Part shown: piece by piece, positions 10,897 through 63,989 of the stretch
Position numbering within the stretch: the stretch's first letter is position 1
Layout of the letters: every line of letters begins with the position of its first letter
Source: Candidatus Nanoarchaeia archaeon
GTDB taxonomy: Archaea > Nanobdellota > Nanobdellia > SCGC-AAA011-G17 > GW2011-AR17
Direction: 5' to 3'
Length of the DNA: 64,000 nt
NCBI GenBank assembly: GCA_028706745.1
Contig: JAQTVM010000007.1
Coordinates: 7,008-71,007, forward strand
Program-made: the position numbers and the translations under genes
The notes under the pieces: model-generated
The model's input: only the letters and a program-made list of their open reading frames with translations
What the model was told of the DNA's origin: nothing
The model's database searches: none

Positions 10897-11721
10897 TCAG
10901 AGCTTTTTCAATGCCTTGTCAGCAGGCTCCATTTCCTTCCACGCAACCCCAAACATATTTGAAATCGCGCCTGCAAAGAAAGGCGAGTTTACCCACACGC
11001 CCGCATCATAATTGGGATGAATCTCAGCGTCATTCATCAGCATGAAAAGCACTTCCTTGTTGTCCACAACGCAGAACCTTGACTCCTGCCTGCTCGCGTG
11101 CCTTATTTCAGCAGAAGACATCAAGTTCTTTACAGCATCTGCTGATTCTTTTGTGACAGGCGCCGCTATCTTCACATCAACGCCCTTCTTGCTGAGCTCC
11201 TGAAGCAAAGGGGCAAAGTTTTCTGATTTTCTTGCAAGCCCTTTTGCGCTTGTAACCAAAACAACGCTTTTCTCGGCATTCTTCAGCATTGTTTCAATCT
11301 GCATATTCAGGTTGCCCCTTCCCTTTACCGAAGTTGAAAGGTCTGCAACATCAACAAACTGAACGCCGTTTTTGTAAAGGGAATCAAGCCCTTTTACCAT
11401 TTCAGCTCCCCTGCTGCTGTCAAGTTTCTTTGCATGCGTAGCAGCCTCAAGATGAACAAACTTCTTTACTCTTTCCACAACCTCCTTTGGCTGGACTGCA
11501 ATATATTTAATTGGTTTTCCTGTCTTAAGCGAGATAAATCCCTTTTTTTCAAGGCTTTCAAGAACATCATACGCCCTTGACCTGGGAACATTGCTTATTT
11601 CCGCAAGCTCGCCTGCAGTCGATATTCCCCTTGAAAGAAGAGCTGTCCACACTTTTGCCTCATATAGATTAAGCTTGAAAAAATGCCTTAAGTTGTTCAG
11701 AAAGTCCTTCTCAACGACCAA
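10897..11721 (-). CDS. TrmB-family transcriptional regulator with C-terminal effector-type domain
   Basis: 274 aa; N-terminal wHTH LYEAKVWTALLSRGISTAGELAEISNVPRSRAYDVLESLEKKGF; paralog of 27842-28627. Confidence 0.8.
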   Translation of the reverse strand: MVVEKDFLNNLRHFFKLNLYEAKVWTALLSRGISTAGELAEISNVPRSRAYDVLESLEKKGFISLKTGKPIKYIAVQPKEVVERVKKFVHLEAATHAKKLDSSRGAEMVKGLDSLYKNGVQFVDVADLSTSVKGRGNLNMQIETMLKNAEKSVVLVTSAKGLARKSENFAPLLQELSKKGVDVKIAAPVTKESADAVKNLMSSAEIRHASRQESRFCVVDNKEVLFMLMNDAEIHPNYDAGVWVNSPFFAGAISNMFGVAWKEMEPADKALKKL

Positions 11722-14351: not shown

Positions 14352-14618
14352 ATGGAAGCAGTATGCATCAAGATGGATACCAGGATAATGGAAGAGATGG
14401 AATCCTGTATAGAAGAGGAAAATTATTCCACAAAGACAGAATTCATACGCGAGGCGATAAGGGAGAAGATTAAGGCGATAAAGAAAGAGCACGCGCTGAA
14501 AATGCTTGAGGCGAACCTTGGCGCTGCAAAAGTAAGGGTAAGCGATAAAAGGCACGCAGAGATTAGAGAGCAAGTTGGAAGGGAATACGCAAAAAAATAC
14601 GGCATAGAACTAGATTAA
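14352..14618 (+). CDS. ribbon-helix-helix (CopG/RHH) family protein
   Basis: 88 aa; KMDTRIMEEMESCIEEENYSTKTEFIREAIREKI is a typical RHH beta-alpha-alpha N-terminus. Confidence 0.6.
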   Translation: MEAVCIKMDTRIMEEMESCIEEENYSTKTEFIREAIREKIKAIKKEHALKMLEANLGAAKVRVSDKRHAEIREQVGREYAKKYGIELD

Positions 14619-15032
14619 CTCTTCGGGCTTTCTTGATTCCGCAATATCCGTTAGGAGCAAAAAATGCGCATCTCTTGTTACAATAATCGCATTATTATCT
14701 CTTGCAAGAATTGCATAAAGAGCATCGGCAAAAGAAACATTTTTGTTTTTCGCTACTGATTTTGCTTCCCGCGCCTGCACATTCGAAGGCTCAACGTGCA
14801 TTAAAATAACATCCATCCCGTTCAGGATTTTAAATATTAATATCACATTTTCAGGCTTGTAATCTTTTTCAAGCTCCGCAAGAACCATATCGCAGTAAAG
14901 TATAATGCCCCCTTCGCCTGCCGCCTTCCTGAAGAATTCCAGCGCCCACTCTCCTAACGGTCTAAAATTATCGCTCCTGTTCTCATAATAGTCCCTGTAG
15001 ACCAATGTGTCAACGAAGTATTTCTGCCCCAT
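14610..15032 (-). CDS. PIN-like domain protein
   Basis: 140 aa; convergent with the RHH gene, overlapping its end by 9 nt; acidic-residue pattern consistent with PIN; weak. Confidence 0.5.
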   Translation of the reverse strand: MGQKYFVDTLVYRDYYENRSDNFRPLGEWALEFFRKAAGEGGIILYCDMVLAELEKDYKPENVILIFKILNGMDVILMHVEPSNVQAREAKSVAKNKNVSFADALYAILARDNNAIIVTRDAHFLLLTDIAESRKPEELI

Positions 15033-15209
15033 TTTTTAATTCGGATGCATTATAATTTTCCCCTTAATAACACTATGCCTCGATTTTTTGAAAAATTTAC
15101 GGCAAGTCCGGAAATATGTAAAAAATAACCTAAAATCTGCATCTGTCCGCCATAAAAAAGCTTATATATTCACTTGATAACTAATTATGTATAGCAAAGA
15201 GGTGTTACT

Positions 15210-15611
15210 ATGGCAAAACGCTCGCAAGCAAAAGAAACTAACAAAGAGACTATCCCTGTTGAAGAGCATGAAAAACCAGACATGCCAAAATTAAAAGGCA
15301 ATGATGTAACCTTGTCAAAGATGGCAGAGGCGCTGGTTGAGACAAACATTGCATTGCAGCACAAGGTTGCTGATTTAATTCTTAACCTGAAAGACACAAA
15401 CAAGAGCATGAAGGAAATGGTCACCCTGTTCACAGAGGCAGGCGAGCATATAAAGAAGGGAAAATATGAGGACCCTCTGATTGTAAAGCTTGACGAGCTT
15501 CTTGACCAGAACAAGAACATTGCAAAGGGGCTTTTGCTTTTGGAAAAATTCGTGAGGGAAAAGCAGGCGCCAACAGGTTTCCAAAGGCCGTTCCAGAAGA
15601 CAGAGCTTTAG
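15210..15611 (+). CDS. hypothetical coiled-coil protein
   Basis: 133 aa, K/E-rich helical; upstream of the FlaI N-domain-like gene. Confidence 0.5.
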   Translation: MAKRSQAKETNKETIPVEEHEKPDMPKLKGNDVTLSKMAEALVETNIALQHKVADLILNLKDTNKSMKEMVTLFTEAGEHIKKGKYEDPLIVKLDELLDQNKNIAKGLLLLEKFVREKQAPTGFQRPFQKTEL

Positions 15612-15650: not shown

Positions 15651-16622
15651 ATGCCTGAAACTAAATTTATTTTTGACAGGGCTGAGAAAGAAGCAAGGCA
15701 GACTGTTAAAGACATAATCTCAATTGTGCAAAAAAAACCCTATCCTGACCCGAACACGACAATTCTCGCGGGATTCATTCACGCACTGTTCCAGACAGGC
15801 TCAAAGATAAAGCAGGTTTCTCCTGCAGTGAAAGAGGAAGCGCCTTTAATGCCTTCATCATCTGTCATTCTTCAGAAAGGGCTGCCGCCTGCGCCGAAGT
15901 ATTCTGCGCCAAAGCCCATTCCAATGCCTGTTCCGGTACAGCCAATGGCAGTTCAGCCGGCTCCGGTTGTTCCTCAGACAGGGCTGCTTGCAAAAGAAAA
16001 TAATCTTCTTCCCCCAATGCCTGAAGCGCCTTCAGCTGTTTTCAAAAGAAGGGAATATTCAATAAATTCATTTGACAATCAGATTGGAATTGTTGTTGAC
16101 AAGGACAGCTCCGGAAAAATATTTTACGCAATCACAGAGCCGAAAGCAGACGAAGAAGTGCTGAAGCTCACAAAAGAATCAATTGAAAAGGACTTTGAAA
16201 AAGATTTCAAGATTCTTGACAACAAGGAAATGCTGGACAGGAAAATTGAAAAGGCGTGCAAGAAAAAGAATGCTGTCTTCACAGAAGATTATGCAAAAGC
16301 AGTGACTTATTTGCTGAAGAGGGACCTGCTCGGCTTCAGGAAAATTGATGCGCTGATGTATGACGCCTCTGTTTTGGCAATTTTCTGCGAAGGGATTAAC
16401 AAGCCTGTGCTTGTCGAGCTGAAAGACATCGGGAAAGTTCCAACGAACATAATATTCACTGAAGTTATTGACCTGAATGCCCTGCTGTACAAGATTGCAA
16501 GGGCGACAGGAGAAAAACTAAGCGACGAGAAGCCGATACTTGACACTGAATATCAGGGCTACAAGATACAGGCAGTGCTTGGCATTGGCGGAATGAGCTC
16601 AAAGCTTATAGTGAAGAAGTAG
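15651..16622 (+). CDS. FlaI/GspE-type secretion ATPase N-terminal-domain-only protein with Pro-rich linker
   Basis: 323 aa; YLLKRDLLGFRKIDALMYD…INKPVLVE…ILDTEYQGYKIQAVLG parallels the FlaI/ArlI N-domain up to the domain boundary; no Walker A, no ATPase domain follows. Confidence 0.65.
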   Translation: MPETKFIFDRAEKEARQTVKDIISIVQKKPYPDPNTTILAGFIHALFQTGSKIKQVSPAVKEEAPLMPSSSVILQKGLPPAPKYSAPKPIPMPVPVQPMAVQPAPVVPQTGLLAKENNLLPPMPEAPSAVFKRREYSINSFDNQIGIVVDKDSSGKIFYAITEPKADEEVLKLTKESIEKDFEKDFKILDNKEMLDRKIEKACKKKNAVFTEDYAKAVTYLLKRDLLGFRKIDALMYDASVLAIFCEGINKPVLVELKDIGKVPTNIIFTEVIDLNALLYKIARATGEKLSDEKPILDTEYQGYKIQAVLGIGGMSSKLIVKK

Positions 16623-16638
16623 TTAACTAAGGACTAAA

Positions 16639-16905
16639 ATGGATGAATCATACATTGAAATGAGGTGTTATGTGAAGTTTGCCCTTCACTTCGGATTTTC
16701 CGAGGAAGCCATCAAGAAAGAGTTGATAAAGGCAGGATGGCCATTGGATAAAGTGAATAAGGCAATAATGGAAGTCAAGGGAATAAAGCCTATGCAGAAA
16801 CCGGTTCAGCAGATTCAGGCAATGCCTCCGCCCCAGGCTCCGGCTGAGATTCCGCAGGAAGTTCAGATGCCGCAAGAGCCTCTTCCCCCGCCCGCCCCTC
16901 AGTGA
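16639..16905 (+). CDS. hypothetical protein with Pro/Gln-rich tail
   Basis: 88-aa ORF; tail overlaps the convergent ORF 16790-17131. Confidence 0.4.
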   Translation: MDESYIEMRCYVKFALHFGFSEEAIKKELIKAGWPLDKVNKAIMEVKGIKPMQKPVQQIQAMPPPQAPAEIPQEVQMPQEPLPPPAPQ

Positions 16906-17131
16906 TGTTTGTTTCTGTGATATTAACAGAGGAAATGCTTTCTGCAGGCTCTTTCATCTCTTCATTGAATATTGCTTTCATGTCATCAATGCTTCCGTAC
17001 ATGTAGAACAGACCTGCAATGAAAAGGATTACGATTATAATCCTGAAAGCCCATTTCGTCATTGTCTTCATAATGTAGAAGACAACAAGCCCTGCAATTA
17101 CTGCGAGTATTATCTTGTAAGTCATGTCCAT
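16790..17131 (-). CDS. hypothetical two-TM membrane protein with acidic tail
   Basis: 113 aa; two hydrophobic helices then a PE-rich tail; 3' end overlaps the convergent ORF. Confidence 0.4.
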   Translation of the reverse strand: MDMTYKIILAVIAGLVVFYIMKTMTKWAFRIIIVILFIAGLFYMYGSIDDMKAIFNEEMKEPAESISSVNITETNITEGRAGEEALAASELPAESQPEPGAEALPESAEPVSA

Positions 17132-17817: not shown

Positions 17818-18006
17818 ATGGCAGACAAATCATTCGCAATACGCTTCAAGGTAGAGCAGGAAAACATCCAGACAGAGATGCACACGCAAAACGTGAGCCC
17901 GCAGGAAGCAATTGGATTATTGGAAATGGCAAAAAACCAGATTCTCGAGAACATCGCAAAGGGAAGAAAAGAGGTCTTTTCGAGCGTGATAAAGAATGAG
18001 CAGTGA
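17818..18006 (+). CDS. hypothetical small protein
   Basis: 62 aa, MADKSFAIRFKVEQ…; the track ORF 17650-18006 begins in a CTACCA low-complexity stretch, so the downstream ATG is more plausible; a TATA-like TCCTATATA lies just upstream. Confidence 0.35.
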   Translation: MADKSFAIRFKVEQENIQTEMHTQNVSPQEAIGLLEMAKNQILENIAKGRKEVFSSVIKNEQ

Positions 18007-18427
18007 GTGCGTTTTCTGCAGGATAATAAAGGGAGAAATACCCTGCGCAAAATTATACGAGAACAATGACATAATCGCGTTTCTTGACATAATGCCGGCA
18101 GTCAAGAAGGGAGGGCACACATTAGTCGTTCCAAAGAAGCATTACGAATTCATAACAGATATGCCTGACGAATTAATCGCAAAAGCAATGTCTGCCGCAA
18201 AAAGGATTGCGTGCGCGGTAATGAAGGAAGCTGACGGCGTCAATATCCTGCTGAACAACGGAAAGGCGGCAGGGCAGTATGTGCCTCACGTGCATTTCCA
18301 CATTGTGCCAAGGTACAAAGGAGATAAAATCGGATTAGCCCATTGGGAAGCCCTGAAATACCGCAAAGGCGAAATGGAAAAAGTGCAGGAAAGGATAAAA
18401 AAGCTCTTTGAAGAAGGCATCTGCTGA
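17996..18427 (+). CDS. HIT-family nucleotide hydrolase/transferase
   Basis: 143 aa; histidine triad HVHFHIVPR; N-terminal CVFCRI. Confidence 0.85.
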   Translation: MSSECVFCRIIKGEIPCAKLYENNDIIAFLDIMPAVKKGGHTLVVPKKHYEFITDMPDELIAKAMSAAKRIACAVMKEADGVNILLNNGKAAGQYVPHVHFHIVPRYKGDKIGLAHWEALKYRKGEMEKVQERIKKLFEEGIC

Positions 18428-18489
18428 AAAAGCTTAAGAAATCGCCCGAAGGCAAATATTTAAATATCCCCTTATCTAATTTAATACTA

Positions 18490-19944
18490 ATGAAGATAAA
18501 GACAATACTGGCATTTATGGCTGTTTTTGCCCTGATGGCGGCTTTTGCAAGCGCAAGGTTTGAAGATTTGGAAATAACAGGGCCGGGAATTGAGCAGGCA
18601 GCAGCAGGCTCAACAATTAAAGTTATTCTCACAATAAACAACAAGGGAAGCGATAACCTCATTCTTGGAGTTAGCAGGGACCCGTTTGCAACGCTTGAGT
18701 CAAGCTGGTTTGAATCGATAATGTTCAGCCCAAACACGTTCAAGCTTGACGGATTGGATTCAAGAGAGCTTGAAATAAGCATAAAATTCAAGAAAACAGT
18801 CCCGACTGACAGCACATACCAGACTGCAATAACATTCTACCAGCTGGACAAGCCCGAGCTAAAAAAAGATTTTAACCTGATGATAAGGGCTGTATCTCCT
18901 GAAAACATACTTAAGGCAAAGATAGAAGCAGACGAGATGGTAATGCCCGGCAAGAATTACAAGGCAAAAATCACAGTTGAAAACAACCTTAATGCTGTTC
19001 TCCCTGAGTCAGAGATTGTTGTTGCAAGCGAGCTTTTTGAGGAAAGAAGAAGCATAATCCTTACCCCCTGGCAGGAGAGGGCAGAAACATTTGAATTTCC
19101 AATCAAAGACAATGAAAAACCCGGAGCATACACTGCAAGCATCAGGGTTTATTATGACAAGCAGCTTGTGTCAAAAAAAGAAGTTGATTTCACAGTCACC
19201 ACTGTTTCAGACGTGGGCGGAGACGAGCAGATTGAGGAAGGTTTCCTATGGAAAAGAATCAGCGTGACAAGGCAGGGAAGCGGAAACACCCCCACTGAAA
19301 CAACATACAGAAAAACGCTCAGTTCATTTGAAAAATTGTTTGCATCATACAGCCCTGAGCCGACTGAAGATGAAGGCGACTCGCTTAAATGGGCGCTTAC
19401 TGTAAACCCGGGCACAACGCAGAAAGTCATAATCACAATCAATTACAGGCCGGCATTCTGGGCAGCGCTTGCAATAATAGCATTCACAGTGTTCGCGCTT
19501 TTTATATTCAGAAGGGGAGTTTCACTGAAAAAAGAGATTATTTCCCACAAGACAACGCACGACGGCTTTACAGAGATAAAGGCAAGAATCCACATAAAGA
19601 ATCATGACAAGAAGTATTTGCATGATGCAGTATTGATTGAAGTGCTGCCCCACCATATGCACCCAAAGATGGAGTTCTCAACTCTTCATCCGGAGGCGGT
19701 TGAAAAAGGAGAAAAGGGAATAAGGATAAGGTGGCACCTTGACAAGGTTGCAGGGCACGAGGAAAGAATCATAACTTACACTGTCCTTACAAAAATCGGG
19801 ATAATCGGCGACATTGAGATGCAGCCAACATTATTAAGATACAAGTCAAAGGAAGGAAAAGTGATAAGCGTTAAGTCAAACAAGGTTTCTTTTATTTCAG
19901 GGCACAAAGACATTGCGCCAAAGCACAAGATTGAGCATCTCTAA
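18490..19944 (+). CDS. secreted surface protein with TM anchor and C-terminal cytoplasmic domain
   Basis: 484 aa; signal peptide MKIKTILAFMAVFALMAAFASA; TM AFWAALAIIAFTVFALFIF followed by RRG. Confidence 0.7.
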   Translation: MKIKTILAFMAVFALMAAFASARFEDLEITGPGIEQAAAGSTIKVILTINNKGSDNLILGVSRDPFATLESSWFESIMFSPNTFKLDGLDSRELEISIKFKKTVPTDSTYQTAITFYQLDKPELKKDFNLMIRAVSPENILKAKIEADEMVMPGKNYKAKITVENNLNAVLPESEIVVASELFEERRSIILTPWQERAETFEFPIKDNEKPGAYTASIRVYYDKQLVSKKEVDFTVTTVSDVGGDEQIEEGFLWKRISVTRQGSGNTPTETTYRKTLSSFEKLFASYSPEPTEDEGDSLKWALTVNPGTTQKVIITINYRPAFWAALAIIAFTVFALFIFRRGVSLKKEIISHKTTHDGFTEIKARIHIKNHDKKYLHDAVLIEVLPHHMHPKMEFSTLHPEAVEKGEKGIRIRWHLDKVAGHEERIITYTVLTKIGIIGDIEMQPTLLRYKSKEGKVISVKSNKVSFISGHKDIAPKHKIEHL

Positions 19945-25516: not shown

Positions 25517-26140
25517 TTGATGGTAAATAATACATCAATAACAAAAGCGGAATGCAATATAATCGCCTTTTTCTTAAGCAATATACAAAAAGAGTTTGGG
25601 ATAAGGGAGATTTCAAGGAATACGAAGACTGACTACAAAAACACATACTCAATAGTGCAAAAGCTGGTTAAGAAAGGCGTGCTGCTAAAACGAAGGCAGG
25701 CAAACCTTGATTTATGCTCTTTAAACTTAAAGGGAGATTTTGGGGAGATTTGCTTTGTTGAGGCAATGAGAGCAAGAATCTTTAGGGCAAAACACAGAAT
25801 GATAAATGAATTTTTCAATGCAGCCATGGAAAAAGCAAGGTATATGCATTACAGCATTGTTGTCTTCGGATCGTTTGCAAAAGGAAAGGAAACAAAAAGC
25901 TCGGACCTGGACATATTGGTGATAGCGCCTGAAAAAAGCGCCGCAGAAGAAATAGTCCGCATATTAAATGCAGAGTCTGTTACAATAGCGGCAGGAATTC
26001 ATGCAATGGCAATAAGCACATCTGACTTCATCTCAAACCTCGCAGACAAAAAGCCCAATGTCATAACCGAAGCATTTAAAAGCCATATTATTATTACAGG
26101 TGCTGAATCATTTTACAAGGGGGGAAAATTTGCCTTATGA
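25517..26140 (+). CDS. minimal nucleotidyltransferase (MNT) with N-terminal wHTH
   Basis: 207 aa; GSFAKGKETKSSDLDILVIAP (GS…D.D nucleotidyltransferase motif). Confidence 0.8.
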   Translation: MMVNNTSITKAECNIIAFFLSNIQKEFGIREISRNTKTDYKNTYSIVQKLVKKGVLLKRRQANLDLCSLNLKGDFGEICFVEAMRARIFRAKHRMINEFFNAAMEKARYMHYSIVVFGSFAKGKETKSSDLDILVIAPEKSAAEEIVRILNAESVTIAAGIHAMAISTSDFISNLADKKPNVITEAFKSHIIITGAESFYKGGKFAL

Positions 26141-27841: not shown

Positions 27842-28627
27842 TTGATAATAATGATAGTAAGCGAAGAATTTTTAGGAAAGGCACGCTCGGCATTTGACTT
27901 GAATGAGTACGAGATAAAAACCTGGACAGCCCTTCTCTCAAGAGGAGAGTCAACAGCAGGCGAATTAGCCGAGATAAGCACAGTGCCAAGATCAAGAGTT
28001 TATGATATTCTGGAAAGCTTGACTTCAAAGGGATATGTCTTAAAAAAGAACGCAACCCCGATAAGATACAAGACAGTAAGCCCCGAGGAAGCATTGAAGG
28101 CTGCAAAGAAAAATGCATTCAGGAATGCAGACACAAAGTCAGCAGAGCTTGAAAAGATAAAATCATCTGACGCATTCAGGGACCTTGACAAGTTTTACAA
28201 GCAGGGCTCTGAGCAGATAAAAACCGAAGTTGTCGGATTAATCAAGGGAAGAAAGAACCTGCACGCGCAGCTGAAGGCAATGGTTTCCGAAGCAAAGAAA
28301 ACAGTCGTGATTGTCTCAACTTCAAACGGGCTTGCAAGAAAGGGAAGAGTTTTGCAGGCTGAACTGAAAAAAGCAAAGGACAAGGGAGTTTCAGTTAAGG
28401 TTTTATCTTCAGCTGAATCACTGCCTGAAGAGCTGAAAGGCATGGCAGAGCTGAGAAAGCACAAGTCAAGCACAAGGTTCGTGATTGTTGATGACAAGGC
28501 AGTATTGTTCATGATGGATGATGACAAGGACGTGCACGAGGCATATGACACAGGCATCGTAGTCAATTCAGGCTTCTTTGCAAAGGGCTTTGAGCACCTG
28601 TTCAGCAACCACTGGGAAAAGATGTAA
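27842..28627 (+). CDS. TrmB-family transcriptional regulator (paralog of 10897-11721)
   Basis: 261 aa; EYEIKTWTALLSRGESTAGELAEISTVPRSRVYDILESL; C-terminal domain alignable with the other TrmB paralog. Confidence 0.8.
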   Translation: MIIMIVSEEFLGKARSAFDLNEYEIKTWTALLSRGESTAGELAEISTVPRSRVYDILESLTSKGYVLKKNATPIRYKTVSPEEALKAAKKNAFRNADTKSAELEKIKSSDAFRDLDKFYKQGSEQIKTEVVGLIKGRKNLHAQLKAMVSEAKKTVVIVSTSNGLARKGRVLQAELKKAKDKGVSVKVLSSAESLPEELKGMAELRKHKSSTRFVIVDDKAVLFMMDDDKDVHEAYDTGIVVNSGFFAKGFEHLFSNHWEKM

Positions 28628-53285: not shown

Positions 53286-53774
53286 ATGAAAGGAATAAGC
53301 GGAAAGGAAATGGAAATCGTGTCGGAATTGGAATTCAAGAATCAGTACTTTTTTACCAGAGAGGAGATTAAAAGGCACTTTACAAGCGCAAATGAGATGA
53401 ATGTTTACCTTCACAGGATGCGGAAGAAAGGGAGGATAATAAAGCTGAACAAACATACGTATTACCTGATTCCTGTAAGGGCAATTGGCGGAAAGTGGTC
53501 AGAGCATCCATATGCCATTATAGATGAGATAATGGACGGCAAAGGATATTGCATTGCCGGCAAGGCCGCCGCTTATTACTGGAAGCACATGGAGCAAATC
53601 CCGTTCCAGTATGAGGTATTTAATACAAGAATGCAAAAAAAGATGGAAATTTTTCATGCCAAGATTAATTTTATAAAAAAAAGGAAGGAAAACCTGCCAA
53701 AAATTACAGAACGTGAAATTCGCGGGCACAGGTTCCTGATAGCAACAAAAGGAGAAAGCAGGAAATGGTCATAA
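53286..53774 (+). CDS. AbiEi-like putative antitoxin/regulator
   Basis: 162 aa directly upstream of, and overlapping, the AbiEii-like gene. Confidence 0.45.
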   Translation: MKGISGKEMEIVSELEFKNQYFFTREEIKRHFTSANEMNVYLHRMRKKGRIIKLNKHTYYLIPVRAIGGKWSEHPYAIIDEIMDGKGYCIAGKAAAYYWKHMEQIPFQYEVFNTRMQKKMEIFHAKINFIKKRKENLPKITEREIRGHRFLIATKGESRKWS

Positions 53775-54505
53775 CAATTGACGAGCTAACAATTATAGCA
53801 GGCAGTAAAGGGTTTGATATTGCAATAATCGAAAAAGATTATCTCCTCACTTACCTCCTTTACACAATCAAGGACGTTGAAGGGATATACTTTAAAGGCG
53901 GGACAGCGTTAAACAAGATATTCCTCAAGCACCAGAGAATTTCAGAAGACCTTGACTTTACATTATCAAGAAGCCTGCCTTCTGTTGAAAAAGACATAAG
54001 GGACAGGCTTAAAGGCACAATATTCAGCAACATAGAAGAAGGCAATAAAGTTGAAGGATTCACAAGACTCATTGTTCATTACAAACTGTTCCATGAGGCA
54101 GGCACAATATTCATTGACCTGAACGAAAGGGGAAAAATGCTTCTGAAACCTAAAAGATTCATGGTGCCTCATTTTTACGGCAGGCACATCCCTCGTTTTG
54201 AAGTAAGATGCATACATCAAAATGAGATAATTGCGGAAAAAGTAATGGCAGCCTGCCAGAGATACAAGCCAAGAGATTATTTTGACTTGTATTATATCAT
54301 CAAGCGCAATTTGCCGCTCTCAATCGGGCTTGTAAGGAAGAAATTCAGGGCAAATAATGAAAAGTTCAGCTCTTATCTGCTGTTCAAGAACACAAACAGG
54401 ATATTCAACAAATGGGAAGATGACTTGTCAAGCCTAACAAAAACACTGCCCTCTTTCAATAAAGTGATGCCTGTAATAAAAAAGAAAGTTAAGTACAGGG
54501 AGTAA
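53765..54505 (+). CDS. AbiEii/DUF1814-family nucleotidyltransferase toxin
   Basis: 246 aa; YFKGGTALNKIFLKHQRISEDLDF signature of the AbiEii nucleotidyltransferase family. Confidence 0.7.
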   Translation: MVITIDELTIIAGSKGFDIAIIEKDYLLTYLLYTIKDVEGIYFKGGTALNKIFLKHQRISEDLDFTLSRSLPSVEKDIRDRLKGTIFSNIEEGNKVEGFTRLIVHYKLFHEAGTIFIDLNERGKMLLKPKRFMVPHFYGRHIPRFEVRCIHQNEIIAEKVMAACQRYKPRDYFDLYYIIKRNLPLSIGLVRKKFRANNEKFSSYLLFKNTNRIFNKWEDDLSSLTKTLPSFNKVMPVIKKKVKYRE

Positions 54506-54546: not shown

Positions 54547-56694
54547 TCAGCTTACCTTGCTTCCCTCAGCAATGTCATTCTCCACTGTTAATAGCCCTAA
54601 CTTTTCATTCTCTGAAGCGGCTAGCAGCATTCCGTTGCTTTCAATGCCTCTCAGGACTACTGGTTGCAAGTTTGTTATGACTATAATCTTCTTTCCCAGA
54701 ATCTTTTCAATAGGATAATGCTTTCTTATGCCTGCGACAATCTGCCTTTCTTCCATGCATTTCCCGAAGTTGACTAATAAGACGACTAATTTGTCTGCGT
54801 TCGGATGAGGCTGTGCTTTCACGACTTTCCCGACTCTTATGTCCATTTTTGCGAATTCGTCATAGCTGACGTGGTTGCATGCAGGGCATGCTTTTAACTG
54901 CACTGACGCCGGTTCCTTGTGTTCTTTAGGATGTTCTTGTTTCATCTTATTTTCCTCCTTGTTCATCATGCTTCTTTCTTCAAGCGGATGTCCGCTTTGC
55001 TTGTCAATTGGCTTGACTTCCTTTGTTAATCGCTCTTTGAAGTATTCAGTGACTTTTGAAGTTTTTGTTTTAAGCTCTTCCATTTCCTTGTCTTCTAATT
55101 TATGGAAGAGAAGCTCTATTTTGTTTAATTTCTGGTTTGGCTTGACTTGCAGTTTATTTATTTTTTTCCAGTCCTTGTCTTTGGCGTTAAGCATCTTAAG
55201 TATTTTTTCTGAAGTTTGGGGCAGGAACGGCTGGACTAGCAAGGCTATCATTCTTGACATGTTTGCGCAGACGTACAAGACGTTCTTTGACTTTTCCGGC
55301 ACTTTCCACGGCTCGTTGTCCTGGAAATACTTGTTTGCCATTGCTGACAGTCTCATTGTTTCTTCCAAAGCGCTTCTTAACTCAACTCTTTCAAAGGCGG
55401 CTTTTATGACTTCTATTTGCTTTTCAACCTGCTTTAGGAAGGTTTTGTCTGCTTTTGTTAAAACTGCCTTGGGGACTTTGTTGCCGTATTTGCTTACTAT
55501 GAATGTCAGTGAGCGGTTGACGAAGTTCCCAAGATTGCCTACCAGCTCGTTGTTTATCTTGTCCTGGAAGTCTTTCCAGTAGAACTCAGTGTCTTTTGTC
55601 TCCGGTATGAGGAATGTCAGATAATATCTCCAGTAGTCAGGGCTTAAGCCGGTGGATGCAAGGTTTTCGCAGAAAACTCCCCATTTTTGGCTTTTTGAAA
55701 ACTTGCGCCCCTCAAAGTTAAGGTACTGCTGCCCGACTACATTATATGGCAGATTAAATTTTCCGTTAGCCATAATCATGGCCGGAAAAAATATTGTATG
55801 GAAAGGTATGTTATCCTTGCCCAGAAAATTATATATCCTTGCATTCTTGTCCTGCCAGAAGAGCTTCCACTTTGTCTTGTTCCACTCCTTTGTTGATGAA
55901 ATATAGCCAATCGGGGCATCAACCCAGACGTAATAGACTAAGTCTTCAAAGCCCTTAAACTGCACAGGCACTCCCCACTTGAGGTTTCTTGTAATGCACC
56001 TTGGCTTTAATCCCTCATTAATCCAGCCCAAAGCCAGGCTTCTTACCTGCTGCCTCCAGTGCTTGTTGCCTTTAATCCACTTCTCCAGCTTTGGAGAAAG
56101 CTTTTCAAAGTCCAGGAAGAGGTGCTTTTTTTCCCTGAATTCAATGTTTTTTGAATTGCAGATTGCACAGTAAGGGTTCTTCAGCTTTTCAGGGTCAAGC
56201 ATTGTGCTGCAGCTCTCGCACTGGTCGCCCCTTGCCTTATCGTATCCGCAGTTTGGGCAGGTTCCTTCTATGTAACGGTCGGAAAGTTGTCTCCTGCATT
56301 CGTTGCAGAAGGGCAGTGAAATGGTTTTTTCTATTATATAGCCATTCTTGTATATCTGGGCCATGAAGTCCTGGGTTGTCTTGTAGTGTATCGGCTTGCT
56401 TGTTCTTGAGAAGTTGTCATAGCTGATGTTAAACCAGTCGTATATACCCTTATGAAGCTTAAAGTAGAAGTCGCAGAGCTCCTTGGGGGTAATGCCATAC
56501 TTGCTTGCAGCTATTTCACTTGCTGTCCCGTGCTCGTCTGTGCCGCCAATGAAGACAGTTTGAAAGCCTTGTAATCTGCAGTATCTTGCGAAGATGTCAG
56601 CCGGCAGCTGAGAGCCCGCTATATGCCCCAGATGGGGAAGATTATTCGTATAGGGCAGTGCACATGTTATGAGACGCCTTTCCTTATTTTTCAT
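54547..56694 (-). CDS. metG: methionyl-tRNA synthetase with C-terminal tRNA-binding (EMAP/Trbp111-like) domain
   Basis: 715 aa; HIGH motif PYTNNLPHLGH, KMSKS motif KFSKS, zinc knuckles CPNC…CESC, C-terminal OB-fold tRNA-binding domain. Confidence 0.9.
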   Translation of the reverse strand: MKNKERRLITCALPYTNNLPHLGHIAGSQLPADIFARYCRLQGFQTVFIGGTDEHGTASEIAASKYGITPKELCDFYFKLHKGIYDWFNISYDNFSRTSKPIHYKTTQDFMAQIYKNGYIIEKTISLPFCNECRRQLSDRYIEGTCPNCGYDKARGDQCESCSTMLDPEKLKNPYCAICNSKNIEFREKKHLFLDFEKLSPKLEKWIKGNKHWRQQVRSLALGWINEGLKPRCITRNLKWGVPVQFKGFEDLVYYVWVDAPIGYISSTKEWNKTKWKLFWQDKNARIYNFLGKDNIPFHTIFFPAMIMANGKFNLPYNVVGQQYLNFEGRKFSKSQKWGVFCENLASTGLSPDYWRYYLTFLIPETKDTEFYWKDFQDKINNELVGNLGNFVNRSLTFIVSKYGNKVPKAVLTKADKTFLKQVEKQIEVIKAAFERVELRSALEETMRLSAMANKYFQDNEPWKVPEKSKNVLYVCANMSRMIALLVQPFLPQTSEKILKMLNAKDKDWKKINKLQVKPNQKLNKIELLFHKLEDKEMEELKTKTSKVTEYFKERLTKEVKPIDKQSGHPLEERSMMNKEENKMKQEHPKEHKEPASVQLKACPACNHVSYDEFAKMDIRVGKVVKAQPHPNADKLVVLLVNFGKCMEERQIVAGIRKHYPIEKILGKKIIVITNLQPVVLRGIESNGMLLAASENEKLGLLTVENDIAEGSKVS
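56375..56446. repeat. 72-nt core shared 71/72 with 59200-59271 (inside metG codons ~84-107)
   Basis: direct comparison of the two metG 5' copies: flanks ~75-80% identical with many synonymous differences, core essentially identical. Confidence 0.7.
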
Positions 56695-58356: not shown

Positions 58357-59067
58357 ATGTGCACATTTGGCATCAAGCTAACTGATAAAAGAAGGTATAT
58401 TTTTAAGAACTTAGATGTTCATAAAGTTATTTTCAGCTATTCTTTGCCTATAATAGACAAGAATGTATTGAAATTCTACATCCCGGGAAAAAATGGCATC
58501 TGGACAGGCATAAACCGGAAAGGCCTGCTTATCCAGACTGCAGAGCATACTGGCAATTTAATCTCAAAATGCAAGATTAACACATGGCCTATTTTTGAAA
58601 GAATGCTTGAGCATTGCAATGATACATATTCAGGTTTGGCATTTCTTATGAGCCGGTTTAAAGAGGCCAAAATGGACCTGCCTGGAAGCATCCTGCTGTC
58701 TGACAGGAATACGTCCATCATAGCAGAGTACTATCCCTCTGTATGGGGCATTAAAATAATAGATGATTGTGATGCAAGAGCAGGGATTTTTGGAGTATTA
58801 ACATCCTTCAATAAAAAGCCCAAGCCTGACAGGGCGCATCTTGCTGTCCGATTAATGTCCAAAATAAAAGATAAAAATGCAGTTGACAGCTTAAAGGCAT
58901 TATGCAGAAAGCATAACATGAAGAATTCTATTTGCCGGCATAAAGGTCCTAATACCAATGGTTCTATCATAATGGATATTTCAGAAAAAGCTGCAATAAT
59001 ACATTATGTTCTTAACAGCCATCCCTGTAAATCTGAGTATAAAAGAATAGTATTTGAATTATACTAG
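58357..59067 (+). CDS. Ntn-hydrolase (C45/choloylglycine-hydrolase-like) with N-terminal Cys nucleophile
   Basis: 236 aa beginning MCTFG… (Cys2 exposed after Met removal, as in Ntn acyl/peptide hydrolases); starts 1 nt after the peptide stop. Confidence 0.55.
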   Translation: MCTFGIKLTDKRRYIFKNLDVHKVIFSYSLPIIDKNVLKFYIPGKNGIWTGINRKGLLIQTAEHTGNLISKCKINTWPIFERMLEHCNDTYSGLAFLMSRFKEAKMDLPGSILLSDRNTSIIAEYYPSVWGIKIIDDCDARAGIFGVLTSFNKKPKPDRAHLAVRLMSKIKDKNAVDSLKALCRKHNMKNSICRHKGPNTNGSIIMDISEKAAIIHYVLNSHPCKSEYKRIVFELY

Positions 59068-59516
59068 TTATTGCAGTTGGGGCAGGTTCCTTCTATGTAC
59101 CTGTCTGATAACTGCCTTTTGCATTCATTGCAGAAGGGAAGGGAGATGCTTTTTTCTATTATATAGCCGTTTTTGTGTATTTTTGCTATTACTTCCTGTG
59201 TTGTCTTGTAGTGTATTGGCTTGCTTGTTCTTGAGAAGTTGTCATAGCTGATGTTAAACCAGTCGTATATATCTTTATGTATCTTGTAGTAGAAATCACA
59301 TAATTCTCTGGGAGTAATGCCGTATTTCTGCGCAGCTATCTCGCTTGCAGTGCCATGCTCATCTGTTCCGCCTATGAAGATGGTTTGATATCCTTGCAGT
59401 CTGTTGTATCTGGCGAAGATGTCAGCTGGGAGATGAGAGCCTACGATGTTTCCTAAGTGTGGTACGTTGTTAGTGTAAGGAAGTGCGGATGTGATTAATC
59501 TTCTTTCCTTAGTCAT
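59064..59516 (-). pseudogene. 5'-terminal 150-codon duplicate of metG (truncated MetRS fragment)
   Basis: MTKERRLITSALPYTNNVPHLGN… about 80% identical to MetRS aa 1-148, ends TCPNCNN*, abutting the convergent hydrolase stop. Confidence 0.7.
59200..59271. repeat. second copy of the 72-nt metG core (see 56375-56446)
   Basis: 71/72 identity. Confidence 0.7.
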
Positions 59517-59599: not shown

Positions 59600-60199
59600 T
59601 TAGCTTTTCTTCAGCATCAGCTCTTTAACCAATGTCAAAAATTCCCTTGCTCTTTTCTCTGATGTTTCTGCCTTTGATTTTATTGCTATCATTCCCATCT
59701 CATATGTGAAATCCCTTCTCTTTCCCATTTCCAGCCTTACTGATTCTATGCTGTTTCTTGCCTCTTCTTCAGCTGTCCTTAAAAGTTCTGACGATTCCCT
59801 TTCGGCAATGCTGTACTGCTCAAGAATGTGCTTTGTGAGCTTCTTGTCGCAGTCAAGAAAATAATACACCAATGCGTGGCAAGTTAATGCGTGGATTCCG
59901 TAATCTGTCTTGATTTTATGGTTATATGCTGCAAGCAATGCTGTTGCTGCATAGAACATTGAATAATATCCTGTGTTAATTGCCCACATGTAGGATTCAT
60001 ATGCCTGCGGAAGATTCAGGAGTTTCTTTGCTTCGCTGCTTTTTGAAAGTTTTATCAATGCAGAGCAGGTTTGCAGCGAAGATTCTGATTTGCTGAGAAA
60101 GAATTCTGCAAATCCGGATTCGGGCTTTACTATTGCGCCTTTCTGGATGAGCCCTGTAATAACTGCCCTTGATTTTTTTATATCCTTGTCTGTCATCAT
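59600..60199 (-). CDS. HEPN-domain protein (paralog of 26137-26763)
   Basis: 199 aa; GYYSMFYAATALLAAYNHKIKTDYGIHALTCHALVYYF parallels the first HEPN. Confidence 0.6.
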   Translation of the reverse strand: MMTDKDIKKSRAVITGLIQKGAIVKPESGFAEFFLSKSESSLQTCSALIKLSKSSEAKKLLNLPQAYESYMWAINTGYYSMFYAATALLAAYNHKIKTDYGIHALTCHALVYYFLDCDKKLTKHILEQYSIAERESSELLRTAEEEARNSIESVRLEMGKRRDFTYEMGMIAIKSKAETSEKRAREFLTLVKELMLKKS

Positions 60200-60786
60200 T
60201 TTGCCATCAGCCTGCAGTAATCCTCAAAGCCTGCAAGAATTATGTGATTGCCTTCAAGCTCATTCACCACGTTCAATCCTTTCTTTTGCCTCATTTCATT
60301 GAAGCTTTCCTCCGAGACTGAACTTATGTGCGTGTTGTATGACAGTGTGCTTAAAGCTGAGTTTGCTTCCTGCTCTGTTTCTTCGGGGTTTTTGGAAACA
60401 AGAAGTATGTCAATGTCGCTGTCTTTTGTTGCTTTTCCTTTTGCATGGCTTCCGAAGAGGATTGCTGTGCAGAATGAAGTGCTTATCTTTTCAAGCTCTT
60501 TTGCAACGAGCTGTATCTTATTGCTGTTTTTGATGAAATCTCTTGTTCTGAGGCTTTCCACGTATGCGTAAAGCGCTGTGTCTGTTTGCAGGTTTATGCT
60601 GCATATGCTGCTGTTGCCCTGCTTTGCTATTGAGAGGATATTTTCTTTTTGCATCTTAATCGCCTCCTCGTAGGCCTGCCTGTAGTTTATTTTTGCGTTT
60701 TTTGAAAGCGCTCTTATTGTATGCGTTTCTTTCGGGCTTGCGAGCATTGTCTTCAGGATTGATATTCTTGAGTTTGTTATTACCAT
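60196..60786 (-). CDS. minimal nucleotidyltransferase with N-terminal wHTH (paralog of 25517-26140)
   Basis: 196 aa; FGSHAKGKATKDSDIDILLVS; 4-nt overlap with the downstream HEPN gene. Confidence 0.8.
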   Translation of the reverse strand: MVITNSRISILKTMLASPKETHTIRALSKNAKINYRQAYEEAIKMQKENILSIAKQGNSSICSINLQTDTALYAYVESLRTRDFIKNSNKIQLVAKELEKISTSFCTAILFGSHAKGKATKDSDIDILLVSKNPEETEQEANSALSTLSYNTHISSVSEESFNEMRQKKGLNVVNELEGNHIILAGFEDYCRLMAK

Positions 60787-61962: not shown

Positions 61963-62691
61963 CTATTTGGGAACTTTGGCTATTCTCCAAAGGAGATTAA
62001 AATAAGTTCTGTAAGAATCTGCTACATCTTTATCAACAATCTGAATAACTTTTGGGTTTTCTGCCCATATTATCAATGCAACTTCATCGCCGCAGATATG
62101 TGTTGCTACGAGAGATTCGACTTCGATAGGGGCATACTTTGCTTGTGTGTAAGGTAAGCTATTTAGATATTTAATCCTCTCTTTCGCATTAAAATTATAT
62201 ATATGCTTCATTACAACTTTCTGTTTGATCCTAATTTTATGAAAATTCATAATAAAATATTTTGCCATTTCTGGAGCCACTTTTGGGACGCCATAAACTA
62301 AGATCTCATCATTATGCTTCAAAAGCCCATAGAGTATCTTTGGTATTGCATTAATACCCTCAAATATATTTGCAAAGCTTCTTCTTTTTGCCATATCAAA
62401 CCTAGAGTTAAGGCAGGGTAATATGCTCTTTAACTTTAATTCTTTTTCTTTCCAAAAAAGTTCAAGGAATGCCGGATTAGATGCTTGGTAAATCTTTGTA
62501 TCATCTGTTGAAATAACAGATACGATTCCTTTTTCCATGAGTTTTTGTAAAGAATCATATATGTTGGGTCTGTGTATCTTGCATTTTTTGGATATTCCAA
62601 CTACAGATGAAGACCCTATCTCCAATAAGGCTATATAAACCTTAGCTTCGTTTAATGTCATTCCTAAATCCATTAATATATGCTCTTCCAT
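61963..62691 (-). CDS. TrmB-family transcriptional regulator
   Basis: 242 aa; LNEAKVYIALLEIGSSSVVGISKKCKIHRPNIYDSLQKLMEKGIV. Confidence 0.75.
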   Translation of the reverse strand: MEEHILMDLGMTLNEAKVYIALLEIGSSSVVGISKKCKIHRPNIYDSLQKLMEKGIVSVISTDDTKIYQASNPAFLELFWKEKELKLKSILPCLNSRFDMAKRRSFANIFEGINAIPKILYGLLKHNDEILVYGVPKVAPEMAKYFIMNFHKIRIKQKVVMKHIYNFNAKERIKYLNSLPYTQAKYAPIEVESLVATHICGDEVALIIWAENPKVIQIVDKDVADSYRTYFNLLWRIAKVPK

Positions 62692-63989
62692 ATCTCGTAT
62701 TCTCCTTTTAAATCTCTTACTACTTCATCACAAGACATATATCTTTTACTGACATCTTCTTCTACACATTTTGATAGTATCCGGCTTATCTGTTTTGATA
62801 GCCTTTGTTCAATATCTCTTGCAGAACATCCTTTTACAGAGTAATAAGGTGCATTTGTCAATATCTCAAAAGCAACAGCACCCGCTGAATAAATGTCAGA
62901 ACTGACTGTTGTGTTGCTTCCTACTGCTTCTGGTGCTGTATATCCTGGAGGACCACTAAATCCTTTGTCGTTTGCATTTTTACTTTTCGCTAATGAAAAA
63001 TCAATAATCTTCAATTCAAAACCACCGAAAGGAGGATTCCTATAGCCCAATAAGATGTTCTCAGGCTTTATGTCTCTATGAATTAGGTCATTCCTATGAA
63101 TATATGATACCCCATTAAATAGTTCATAAACACGCCATAACCTCATTTCCATCGACTCTTCTAGTATCTCCGCAAATCCGCGCGGGGCATATTCCATTAC
63201 CAAAAATCCTTCTTTGTCGATATTAACCAAGAAATCCTTTACCCCGATTATATTTTGATAAAACATGCTTTTAAGTATATTAGCTTCCTTTTCCAGAAGT
63301 TTTATGTTTCTTGATTTTTTTACAGCAACTATCTCTCCTGTAATGACGTCTTCGGCTTGATATATATCTCCGTGTGCACCAGCGCCCAATTTCCTACATA
63401 AGAGATAGGGATTTAAATGGCAAATAGAATCGGGAGAAATAACTTTCTCTTCTTTTTCAATTTTTTCTTTTGCCGGCAATAATCTTATATCTTCTTTTTG
63501 CTCGAAACCAGATAATGTAAGCTGTGCATCGTCCAACACATCCCCTGAGAATCCTGCTTCATGCAAGGAATCTAATATAGACTTATACCCCTCTTTGAAT
63601 AATGCAATCTCTTCTTTAGATAAATCTATGCTCGGATTTAAAATAACCCGTGCTCGCCTTTCTTTAATCTGTATGGGTAACCCAATAAATAAACCGCCAA
63701 AATAAGCAGAACTGGTTACTGTTTTTCCCTCTTCAGAGATAGAATCTATTACATCTAATATTGCGTCAACAGTTGTTCTTGTTGTAGAAATTCCCCCATC
63801 AATTTGCCTTTTTGCATAATCTGATACTTCTTCCCTCAATTCCCTATATCTATTTATAACAAATTGGGCTTCTTTTCCTTTAATCCGCAACTTACTTATC
63901 AAAGGGAAAGCAGATTCGTTATGAGGTCCGATAGAATAATATCCTGTTATGTCTTCTAAATCAACGATATCGCCCATCTCTTCGTACAA
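62673..63989 (-). CDS. eukaryotic-like (Hanks-type) Ser/Thr protein kinase with N-terminal uncharacterised domain
   Basis: 438 aa; G-loop GAGAHGDIY, VAVK, catalytic loop HRDIKPENILL, DFS (DFG-variant), TAPE; overlaps the TrmB gene start by 19 nt. Confidence 0.8.
   Translation of the reverse strand: MYEEMGDIVDLEDITGYYSIGPHNESAFPLISKLRIKGKEAQFVINRYRELREEVSDYAKRQIDGGISTTRTTVDAILDVIDSISEEGKTVTSSAYFGGLFIGLPIQIKERRARVILNPSIDLSKEEIALFKEGYKSILDSLHEAGFSGDVLDDAQLTLSGFEQKEDIRLLPAKEKIEKEEKVISPDSICHLNPYLLCRKLGAGAHGDIYQAEDVITGEIVAVKKSRNIKLLEKEANILKSMFYQNIIGVKDFLVNIDKEGFLVMEYAPRGFAEILEESMEMRLWRVYELFNGVSYIHRNDLIHRDIKPENILLGYRNPPFGGFELKIIDFSLAKSKNANDKGFSGPPGYTAPEAVGSNTTVSSDIYSAGAVAFEILTNAPYYSVKGCSARDIEQRLSKQISRILSKCVEEDVSKRYMSCDEVVRDLKGEYEIWKSIY

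Follow-up and report, generated by a model that had tools for sequence, protein, structure and literature searches.

What becomes of the N-terminal domain of a motor ATPase in a gene that ends before the ATPase begins? This question is raised by a protein of 323 residues encoded on the forward strand of contig JAQTVM010000007.1 of a Candidatus Nanoarchaeia archaeon, within a stretch of 64,000 nucleotides which we analysed as a whole and refer to as the window. The original prediction, made from the letters of the DNA, had read the gene as a free-standing N-terminal domain of a FlaI/GspE-type secretion ATPase behind a proline-rich spacer, and had seen in it either a regulatory or decoy subunit or the remnant of a degraded pilus locus. 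Our analysis confirms the domain and contradicts the remnant. We consider it reasonably probable that the gene encodes a functional, ancient, ATPase-less paralog of the FlaI/GspE2 N-terminal domain, which DPANN archaea have put to use as a non-catalytic scaffold or adaptor. The gene and the three parts of its product are as follows.

15651..16622, + strand: focal gene, 323 aa, ATG start, encoding a three-part protein
15651..15812, + strand: N-module (residues 1-54), two helices, 'KFIFDR...KKPYPD...LAxFIHALFQ', with F6 invariant in the alignments
15813..16037, + strand: proline-rich linker (residues 55-129), predicted to be disordered, with a predicted local distance difference test (pLDDT) score below 50
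16038..16622, + strand: complete FlaI/GspE2-type N-terminal domain (residues 130-323) and the stop codon

The identity of the third part is seen in both sequence and structure. Among PDB sequences, phmmer found the A. fulgidus secretion ATPase GspE (2OAP, 511 aa; E=3.3e-16), with residues 130-311 of the focal protein aligned to residues 28-214 of 2OAP, that is, to its N-terminal domain only. In these alignments the focal stretch 'PILDTEY.QGYKIQAVLG' is paired with 'PIVDATLPDGSRLQATFG' of 2OAP and, without its leading proline, with 'IVDATLPDGSRLQATFG'. The NCBIfam FlaI model NF058587 also matches (E=9e-13), and the match is confined to profile positions 85-217 of 527. An AlphaFold2 model of the protein, built on 24 homologs, has residues 130-323 at a pLDDT of ~90, and a Foldseek search with this model returned 2OAP (E=1.4e-12, 201 columns), the FlaI structures 4II7/4IHQ (E ~1e-10, ~200 columns) and CpaF (E ~1e-8); the structure prediction that had been proposed as a check is thus in agreement with the sequence searches. 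The homology with the FlaI/GspE2 N-terminal domain is genuine. No Pfam match was found for the protein, T2SSE (PF00437) included.

What is common to the focal domain and to A. fulgidus GspE2 (2OAP) and S. acidocaldarius FlaI (4II7/4IHQ) extends over ~195 residues of sequence and fold homology, and comprises a three-stranded sheet, a helical bundle and a PAS-like alpha/beta subdomain, together with the motifs Y..xEP, YY..RD..G.G, D, C.G and TN..F. The N-terminal domain of CpaF/TadA, the Tad pilus ATPase (9E24/8RKD; 156 Foldseek columns), has the same PAS-like, N2-type subdomain, but CpaF is more distant (15% identity) and is a full ATPase. As had been predicted, the similarity continues up to the domain boundary: in the alignment with full-length enzymes, the focal protein stops on the strand corresponding to 'FTIRKF', with which the N-terminal domain closes, and it is right after this strand that the 'R.EP.TP..LI' linker to the ATPase domain starts in those enzymes. 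The predicted spacer is equally real, with a proline content of 25% in residues 55-129 compared with 2-7% in the flanking segments, and it carries conserved motifs ('LPxxP(x)Y' at 78-84 and 'LLPxxP' at ~118-125). The two helices of the N-module (residues 3-28 and 34-50) are modelled by AlphaFold2 at a pLDDT of 60-80.

Could the ATPase domain be hidden nearby? All three frames are closed by stop codons within 16620-16632, where the focal open reading frame (ORF) ends. When 11 full-length FlaI/GspE2-type ATPases were compared with the 64 kb by tblastn, only their N-terminal domains aligned (15963-16631) and no C-terminal domain was found, while a hidden Markov model (HMM) of the ATPase C-terminal domain gave 0 matches in the window and in 33 related loci. 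In the related full-length clade, Walker A has the form G.T..GK[ST], for instance GGTASGKT. Compared with the defining features of PilT-like ATPases, the focal protein has the N2-type PAS-like domain and lacks everything catalytic, namely the Walker A and atypical Walker B motifs, the Asp box, the His box and the conserved arginine fingers. The prediction that the ORF stops before any ATPase domain and that none is encoded downstream is therefore upheld by Pfam, tblastn and the three-frame stops. At the same time, the gene shows a ratio of nonsynonymous to synonymous substitution rates (dN/dS) of 0.12-0.17 against three orthologs of 59-75% identity, at which dS is saturated, and it evolves under purifying selection.

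The wider surroundings are not those of a filament locus either. A Pfam scan of ~59 ORFs of the window, which include every non-shadow ORF of at least 150 aa, detected neither a platform protein nor a prepilin peptidase nor a secretion ATPase, although small pilins could escape Pfam; likewise, the annotated neighbourhoods of 9 related loci contained no T2SSF, T2SSE or peptidase A24. The Pfam content of the window is of a housekeeping kind and comprises topoisomerase VI subunits A and B, SMC, methionyl-tRNA synthetase (MetRS), RNase HII, an IF-2B-family protein, D-aminoacyl-tRNA deacylase and toxin-antitoxin pairs.

How common, then, is a protein of this kind? A word-index search found 25 proteins of 300-368 aa (one of them a 243-aa partial) with 99-100% query coverage and 34-100% identity, the focal protein being 100% identical to P0001 from a Candidatus Nanoarchaeia metagenome-assembled genome (MAG). 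A profile search gave 1433 matches at E <1e-3. Counting as stand-alone every protein in which the match reaches to 12 residues or fewer from the C-terminus, we found that the best 150 cluster representatives at 50% identity divide into 111 stand-alone proteins, 24 full-length ATPases and 15 fragments or others. The original prediction had left it to a survey of relatives whether ORFs consisting of the N-terminal domain are conserved, and the answer is strongly positive, with more than 130 members ending at the same point. Most of them have the N-module as well (122 of the 143 stand-alone proteins collected), whereas no full-length ATPase does; it is marked as family-specific by 'KKPYPD', 'LAxFIHALF' and the invariant F6. 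The linker, on the other hand, varies from ~50 to 250 aa across the family. Among the subset of matches that carry names, all sources are Nanoarchaeota, Woesearchaeota, Nanoarchaeia or unclassified 'archaeon' MAGs.

The relationship between the two groups is a simple one. When the shared domain was placed in a neighbour-joining tree, 25/25 full-length ATPases fell on one side of a single split and 137/138 stand-alone proteins on the other, the exception probably being P0105, a contig-end fragment of a 661-aa ATPase. Because one split suffices, the sequences point to one ancient origin of the stand-alone family rather than to repeated truncation of ATPase genes. The nearest full-length ATPases are of mixed archaeal origin (Thermoprotei, Euryarchaeota, a 'FlaI' in JGI annotation and Nanoarchaeota). 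A viral or mobile origin was also considered and rejected, since neither IMG/VR contigs nor BFVD yielded any relatives. One family member, P0176 from the 0.1-0.22 um fraction of Tara Oceans (L015 6001-6885), has been automatically labelled 'COG0630 K07332' (FlaI) despite having no ATPase domain.

Has the separated domain remained what it was in the enzyme? PilT-like ATPases have two fully conserved arginines at the end of the N2 domain, through which the gamma-phosphate is sensed, and in PilB, where the N2 domain comprises residues 181-288, these are R271 and R286 (McCallum 2017, PMC5424180). Arginine is found at both positions in 25/25 full-length ATPases, compared with 54/137 (39%) and 21/137 (15%) of the stand-alone proteins; in the focal protein the first position is K305 and the second, depending on the alignment, V321 or K322. 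Further positions, conserved at 88-100% in the ATPases and at 0-13% in the family, show the same contrast: three residues of 'IEDISCDG' (E, D and S), the 'V.H' His, the 'LP' that precedes DGSR, and the Gly of 'RGS', which is deleted in the stand-alone proteins. Common to both groups is a structural core made up of Y159, E163, P164, Y220, R224, D238, C246, G248, N266 and P295. From these alignments, we read the stand-alone domain as having lost its coupling to nucleotide and to the C-terminal domain while retaining the fold. Such a loss argues against a split enzyme and, less strongly, against canonical docking on an ATPase.

Unlike GspE2 and FlaI, therefore, the stand-alone family is without the inter-domain linker and the RecA-like ATPase domain, and has relaxed the fingers, the E-D-x-S motif and the His; it has added, instead, a two-helix N-module and a proline-rich tether. 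It also differs from them in its company, as the focal gene has a partner encoding a helical hairpin, and no pilin, platform or peptidase genes were found in the window by Pfam. This company was surveyed in the window and the 33 related loci (~28 of them distinct), and in the window it consists of the following features around the focal gene.

15162..15169, + strand: TTATATAT box, read from the sequence, with a run of A before it and ~45 nt ahead of the first cassette gene
15200..15204, + strand: AGGTG, a Shine-Dalgarno-like motif preceding the hairpin gene
15210..15611, + strand: partner gene 1, helical-hairpin protein of 133 aa, directly upstream of the focal gene
16639..16905, + strand: partner gene 2, 'GW'-domain protein of 88 aa with a proline-rich tail
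16790..17131, - strand: convergent membrane protein of 113 aa with two transmembrane (TM) helices and a conserved 'MTKW.FR' loop

The most constant member of this cassette is the hairpin gene. A gene of 104-148 aa of this type lies directly upstream and on the same strand in 29/29 loci having upstream DNA, and the linkage holds even in clades that are only 29-31% identical to the focal protein. Its product is predicted to consist of a disordered segment (1-30), a helix (32-82), a 'KGKYEDP' loop, a second helix (89-119) and a disordered 'F.PRPFQK' tail, and AlphaFold2 models the helices at a pLDDT >90. We found 53 homologs, all of 80-148 aa and from DPANN MAGs, and they are better conserved than the focal protein. 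Searches with the hairpin in Pfam, PDB and Foldseek gave nothing informative, and a relationship with prefoldin was rejected (hhalign probability 0.1%). Fusions of the hairpin with the focal protein were looked for in the longer members P0027, P0116, P0144 and P0168 and none was found, the extra length being low-complexity linker. The TTATATAT box is the putative archaeal promoter of the operon.

The genes on the other side of the focal gene had been described in the original prediction as short proline-rich and membrane ORFs, and both are real. The first of these, partner gene 2, is itself a conserved member of the cassette: a homolog follows the stand-alone gene in ~18 loci and is missing from four deep clades. 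Its domain of ~45 aa ('IEMRCY.KY.L..G....I...LI..GW') has no Pfam match. In L014 and L015, this same domain is fused behind an N-terminal two-TM hairpin according to TM prediction, so that the third component is membrane-anchored in some lineages. The convergent two-TM protein recurs in 11 loci of the window's clade and has an acidic tail rich in N-x-T/S sequons; its membership of the cassette is uncertain. Homology between this protein and the two-TM part of the L014/L015 product was considered and rejected, as the charge distribution implies opposite topologies. The two downstream genes overlap by 116 nt (16639-16905, + strand, and 16790-17131, - strand), with the proline-rich tail antisense to the acidic one; the conservation of the two gene families in related loci suggests that neither tail need be spurious.

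Taken together, these observations suggest how such a protein could work. In our favoured explanation, the N-terminal domain of an archaeal type IV filament ATPase would have been separated from its engine and kept as a protein-interaction module, with a function that is probably unrelated to ATP hydrolysis. The hairpin, the stand-alone protein and the GW protein would assemble into one complex, in which the N-module probably bundles with the helices of the hairpin, and the 'LPxxP' and 'LLPxxP' motifs of the linker may serve as short linear docking sites. In those lineages that have the two-TM version of the third protein, the complex could be held at the membrane. We propose that it would act as a scaffold or adaptor and not within an ATP-driven motor. 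A more specific version of this idea is that of an unrecognised, membrane-proximal complex of DPANN archaea which has lost its engine and taken on a new role, be it in envelope or host contact or in cooperation with the thermosome, or which acts as a brake on host-attachment filaments; this we put forward only tentatively.

There are also observations which weigh against the scaffold explanation. For instance, a full-length relative, P0182, is present in Nanoarchaeota. Furthermore, a basic residue is found at the C-terminal strand in 136/137 stand-alone members, and some ATPase-like contact might, to judge from this conserved position, be maintained through it. Finally, the FlaI-like domain is the only part of the three cassette proteins for which an informative match was found.

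The first of the alternatives to be weighed is the one already raised by the original prediction, namely that the protein is a regulator or decoy acting in trans. The free N-terminal domain would bind either a full-length FlaI/PilB-like ATPase, at the C-terminal domain of the latter, or the FlaJ/TadC platform, and would block, cap or recruit the motor, with the hairpin and the small protein as co-regulators. A ready binding mode for this exists, given that in PilT-like ATPases ~1,600 Å2 of surface are buried between the N2 domain of one subunit and the C-terminal domain of its neighbour (PMC5424180), and the core motifs (Y..xEP, YY..RD, D238 and C246-x-G248) have been kept. In addition, DPANN archaea have genes for type IV filament systems (preprint 10.64898/2026.04.22.720090), and full-length relatives exist in Nanoarchaeota. 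On the other hand, the residues facing the nucleotide or the C-terminal domain that are invariant in the sampled ATPases (the Arg fingers, E-D-x-S and His) are relaxed, and a regulator is somewhat disfavoured by this. Neither the 33 loci, over 5-10 kb, nor the 64-kb window yielded an ATPase C-terminal domain, and Pfam detected no further filament gene in the window; the family has, instead, an obligate partner gene of its own. We therefore regard a regulator or decoy as rather unlikely, attractive though the known packing makes it.

The gene neighbourhoods suggest another alternative, in which the hairpin and the stand-alone domain act with an upstream chaperonin as a cofactor of the thermosome (group II chaperonin) or, more generally, in proteostasis. 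Of the ~15 distinct loci whose upstream DNA is long enough, 8 (L002, L013, L015, L017, L026, L029, L031 and L033) have a thermosome (Cpn60_TCP1) gene upstream of the hairpin gene, at a distance of 0.1-3.5 kb; three of them (L013, L017 and L033) have it immediately next to the cassette and on the same strand. The clades concerned are only 29-42% identical to the window protein, and L015 has a prefoldin gene near the cassette in addition. Yet the 64-kb window itself contains no thermosome gene, the neighbours in L001 and L016 are RNA polymerase and RNase J, and the hairpin has no similarity to prefoldin. Moreover, the linkage may be inherited gene order, because several of the loci share wider synteny. 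A dedicated thermosome cofactor is thus improbable in our view.

Still less can be said for a split ATPase whose C-terminal domain is encoded elsewhere in the genome and whose halves reassemble. It is true that the protein ends exactly at the inter-domain boundary, as one half of such an enzyme would. The fingers that a trans-acting N-terminal domain needs are, however, not conserved, either in the window protein (K and V/K) or across the family, and the E-D-x-S and His motifs are lost. The N-module and the long tether bear no relation to ATPases, a C-terminal domain was found in none of the 33 loci, and a 2026 census reports no evidence of fission of archaeal filament ATPases (10.64898/2026.04.22.720090). 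We consider a split enzyme very improbable. As for a pseudogene, a frameshift or assembly artefact, or the remnant of a degraded pilus locus, nothing speaks for it except the missing ATPase domain, and it is refuted, to a degree close to certainty, by the low dN/dS, by the identical architecture of more than 130 divergent proteins from independent assemblies, by the N-module, by the conserved operon partners and by the three-frame stops with no ATPase-like sequence after the ORF.

Where does this leave the stand-alone family among known systems? One comparison, by analogy only, is with FlaH/ArlH, the KaiC-like, non-hydrolysing partner of FlaI, in which a degenerate NTPase relative likewise would serve as a structural or regulatory partner. 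FlaH has a fold unrelated to the stand-alone domain, retains nucleotide binding and sits in the archaellum operon. A closer parallel is arCOG05558 of Pyrobaculum/Thermoproteus, described as an 'ATPase lacking the C-terminal domain' with a small Cys-rich N-terminal domain, in a filament-type locus (Makarova et al. 2016, PMC4858521). Both derive from an archaeal filament ATPase by truncation and have gained a small N-terminal domain; as far as a comparison by description only can tell, our family differs in that it keeps the N-terminal domain alone, has another N-module, comes from DPANN MAGs and lies outside filament loci.

The stand-alone family is not described in the 2016 (PMC4858521) and 2026 (10.64898/2026.04.22.720090) censuses of archaeal filaments, and a further full-text literature search found no description of it. 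We thus have a large and conserved family which is apparently undescribed. The 2026 census found no evidence of ATPase fission or fusion events (10.64898/2026.04.22.720090), and the family would, in contrast to that statement, be a clear case of domain fission and exaptation among archaeal filament ATPases. Additionally, it adds a module of two or three genes without a Pfam family to what can be studied in DPANN, a group of largely unknown cell biology. There is also a practical hazard for annotation, since claims of a pilus or archaellum ATPase (FlaI) in DPANN genomes could rest on a protein without an engine, as the COG0630/K07332 label illustrates.

A number of other features of the window can be recorded. 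Immediately upstream of the cassette, a ribbon-helix-helix gene (14352-14618, + strand) is convergent with a PIN-domain gene (14610-15032, - strand), an order that is unusual for a toxin-antitoxin pair. Downstream of the cassette, a HIT-family hydrolase is followed by a secreted CARDB/S-layer-like protein of ~480 aa (together 17996-19944), and the pair is syntenic with L004 13479-15392. A second lone N-terminal piece in the window is a 150-aa fragment of MetRS (59064-59516, - strand), which shares 86% identity over 146 aa with the full-length MetRS (54547-56694, - strand) 2.4 kb away and ends just past the CPNC zinc knuckle; it looks like a recent partial duplication or a pseudogene. The window further encodes an AbiEii-type nucleotidyltransferase toxin (53765-54502), three TrmB-family regulators (10897-11721, 27842-28627 and 61963-62691) and a eukaryote-like Ser/Thr protein kinase (62673-63989) that reaches the window end. 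Finally, 25517-26140 and 60196-60786 encode paralogous proteins of ~200 aa with a Pol-beta-type nucleotidyltransferase domain, each adjoining an uncharacterised ORF of ~200 aa, and these could be minimal nucleotidyltransferase pairs resembling toxin-antitoxin systems.

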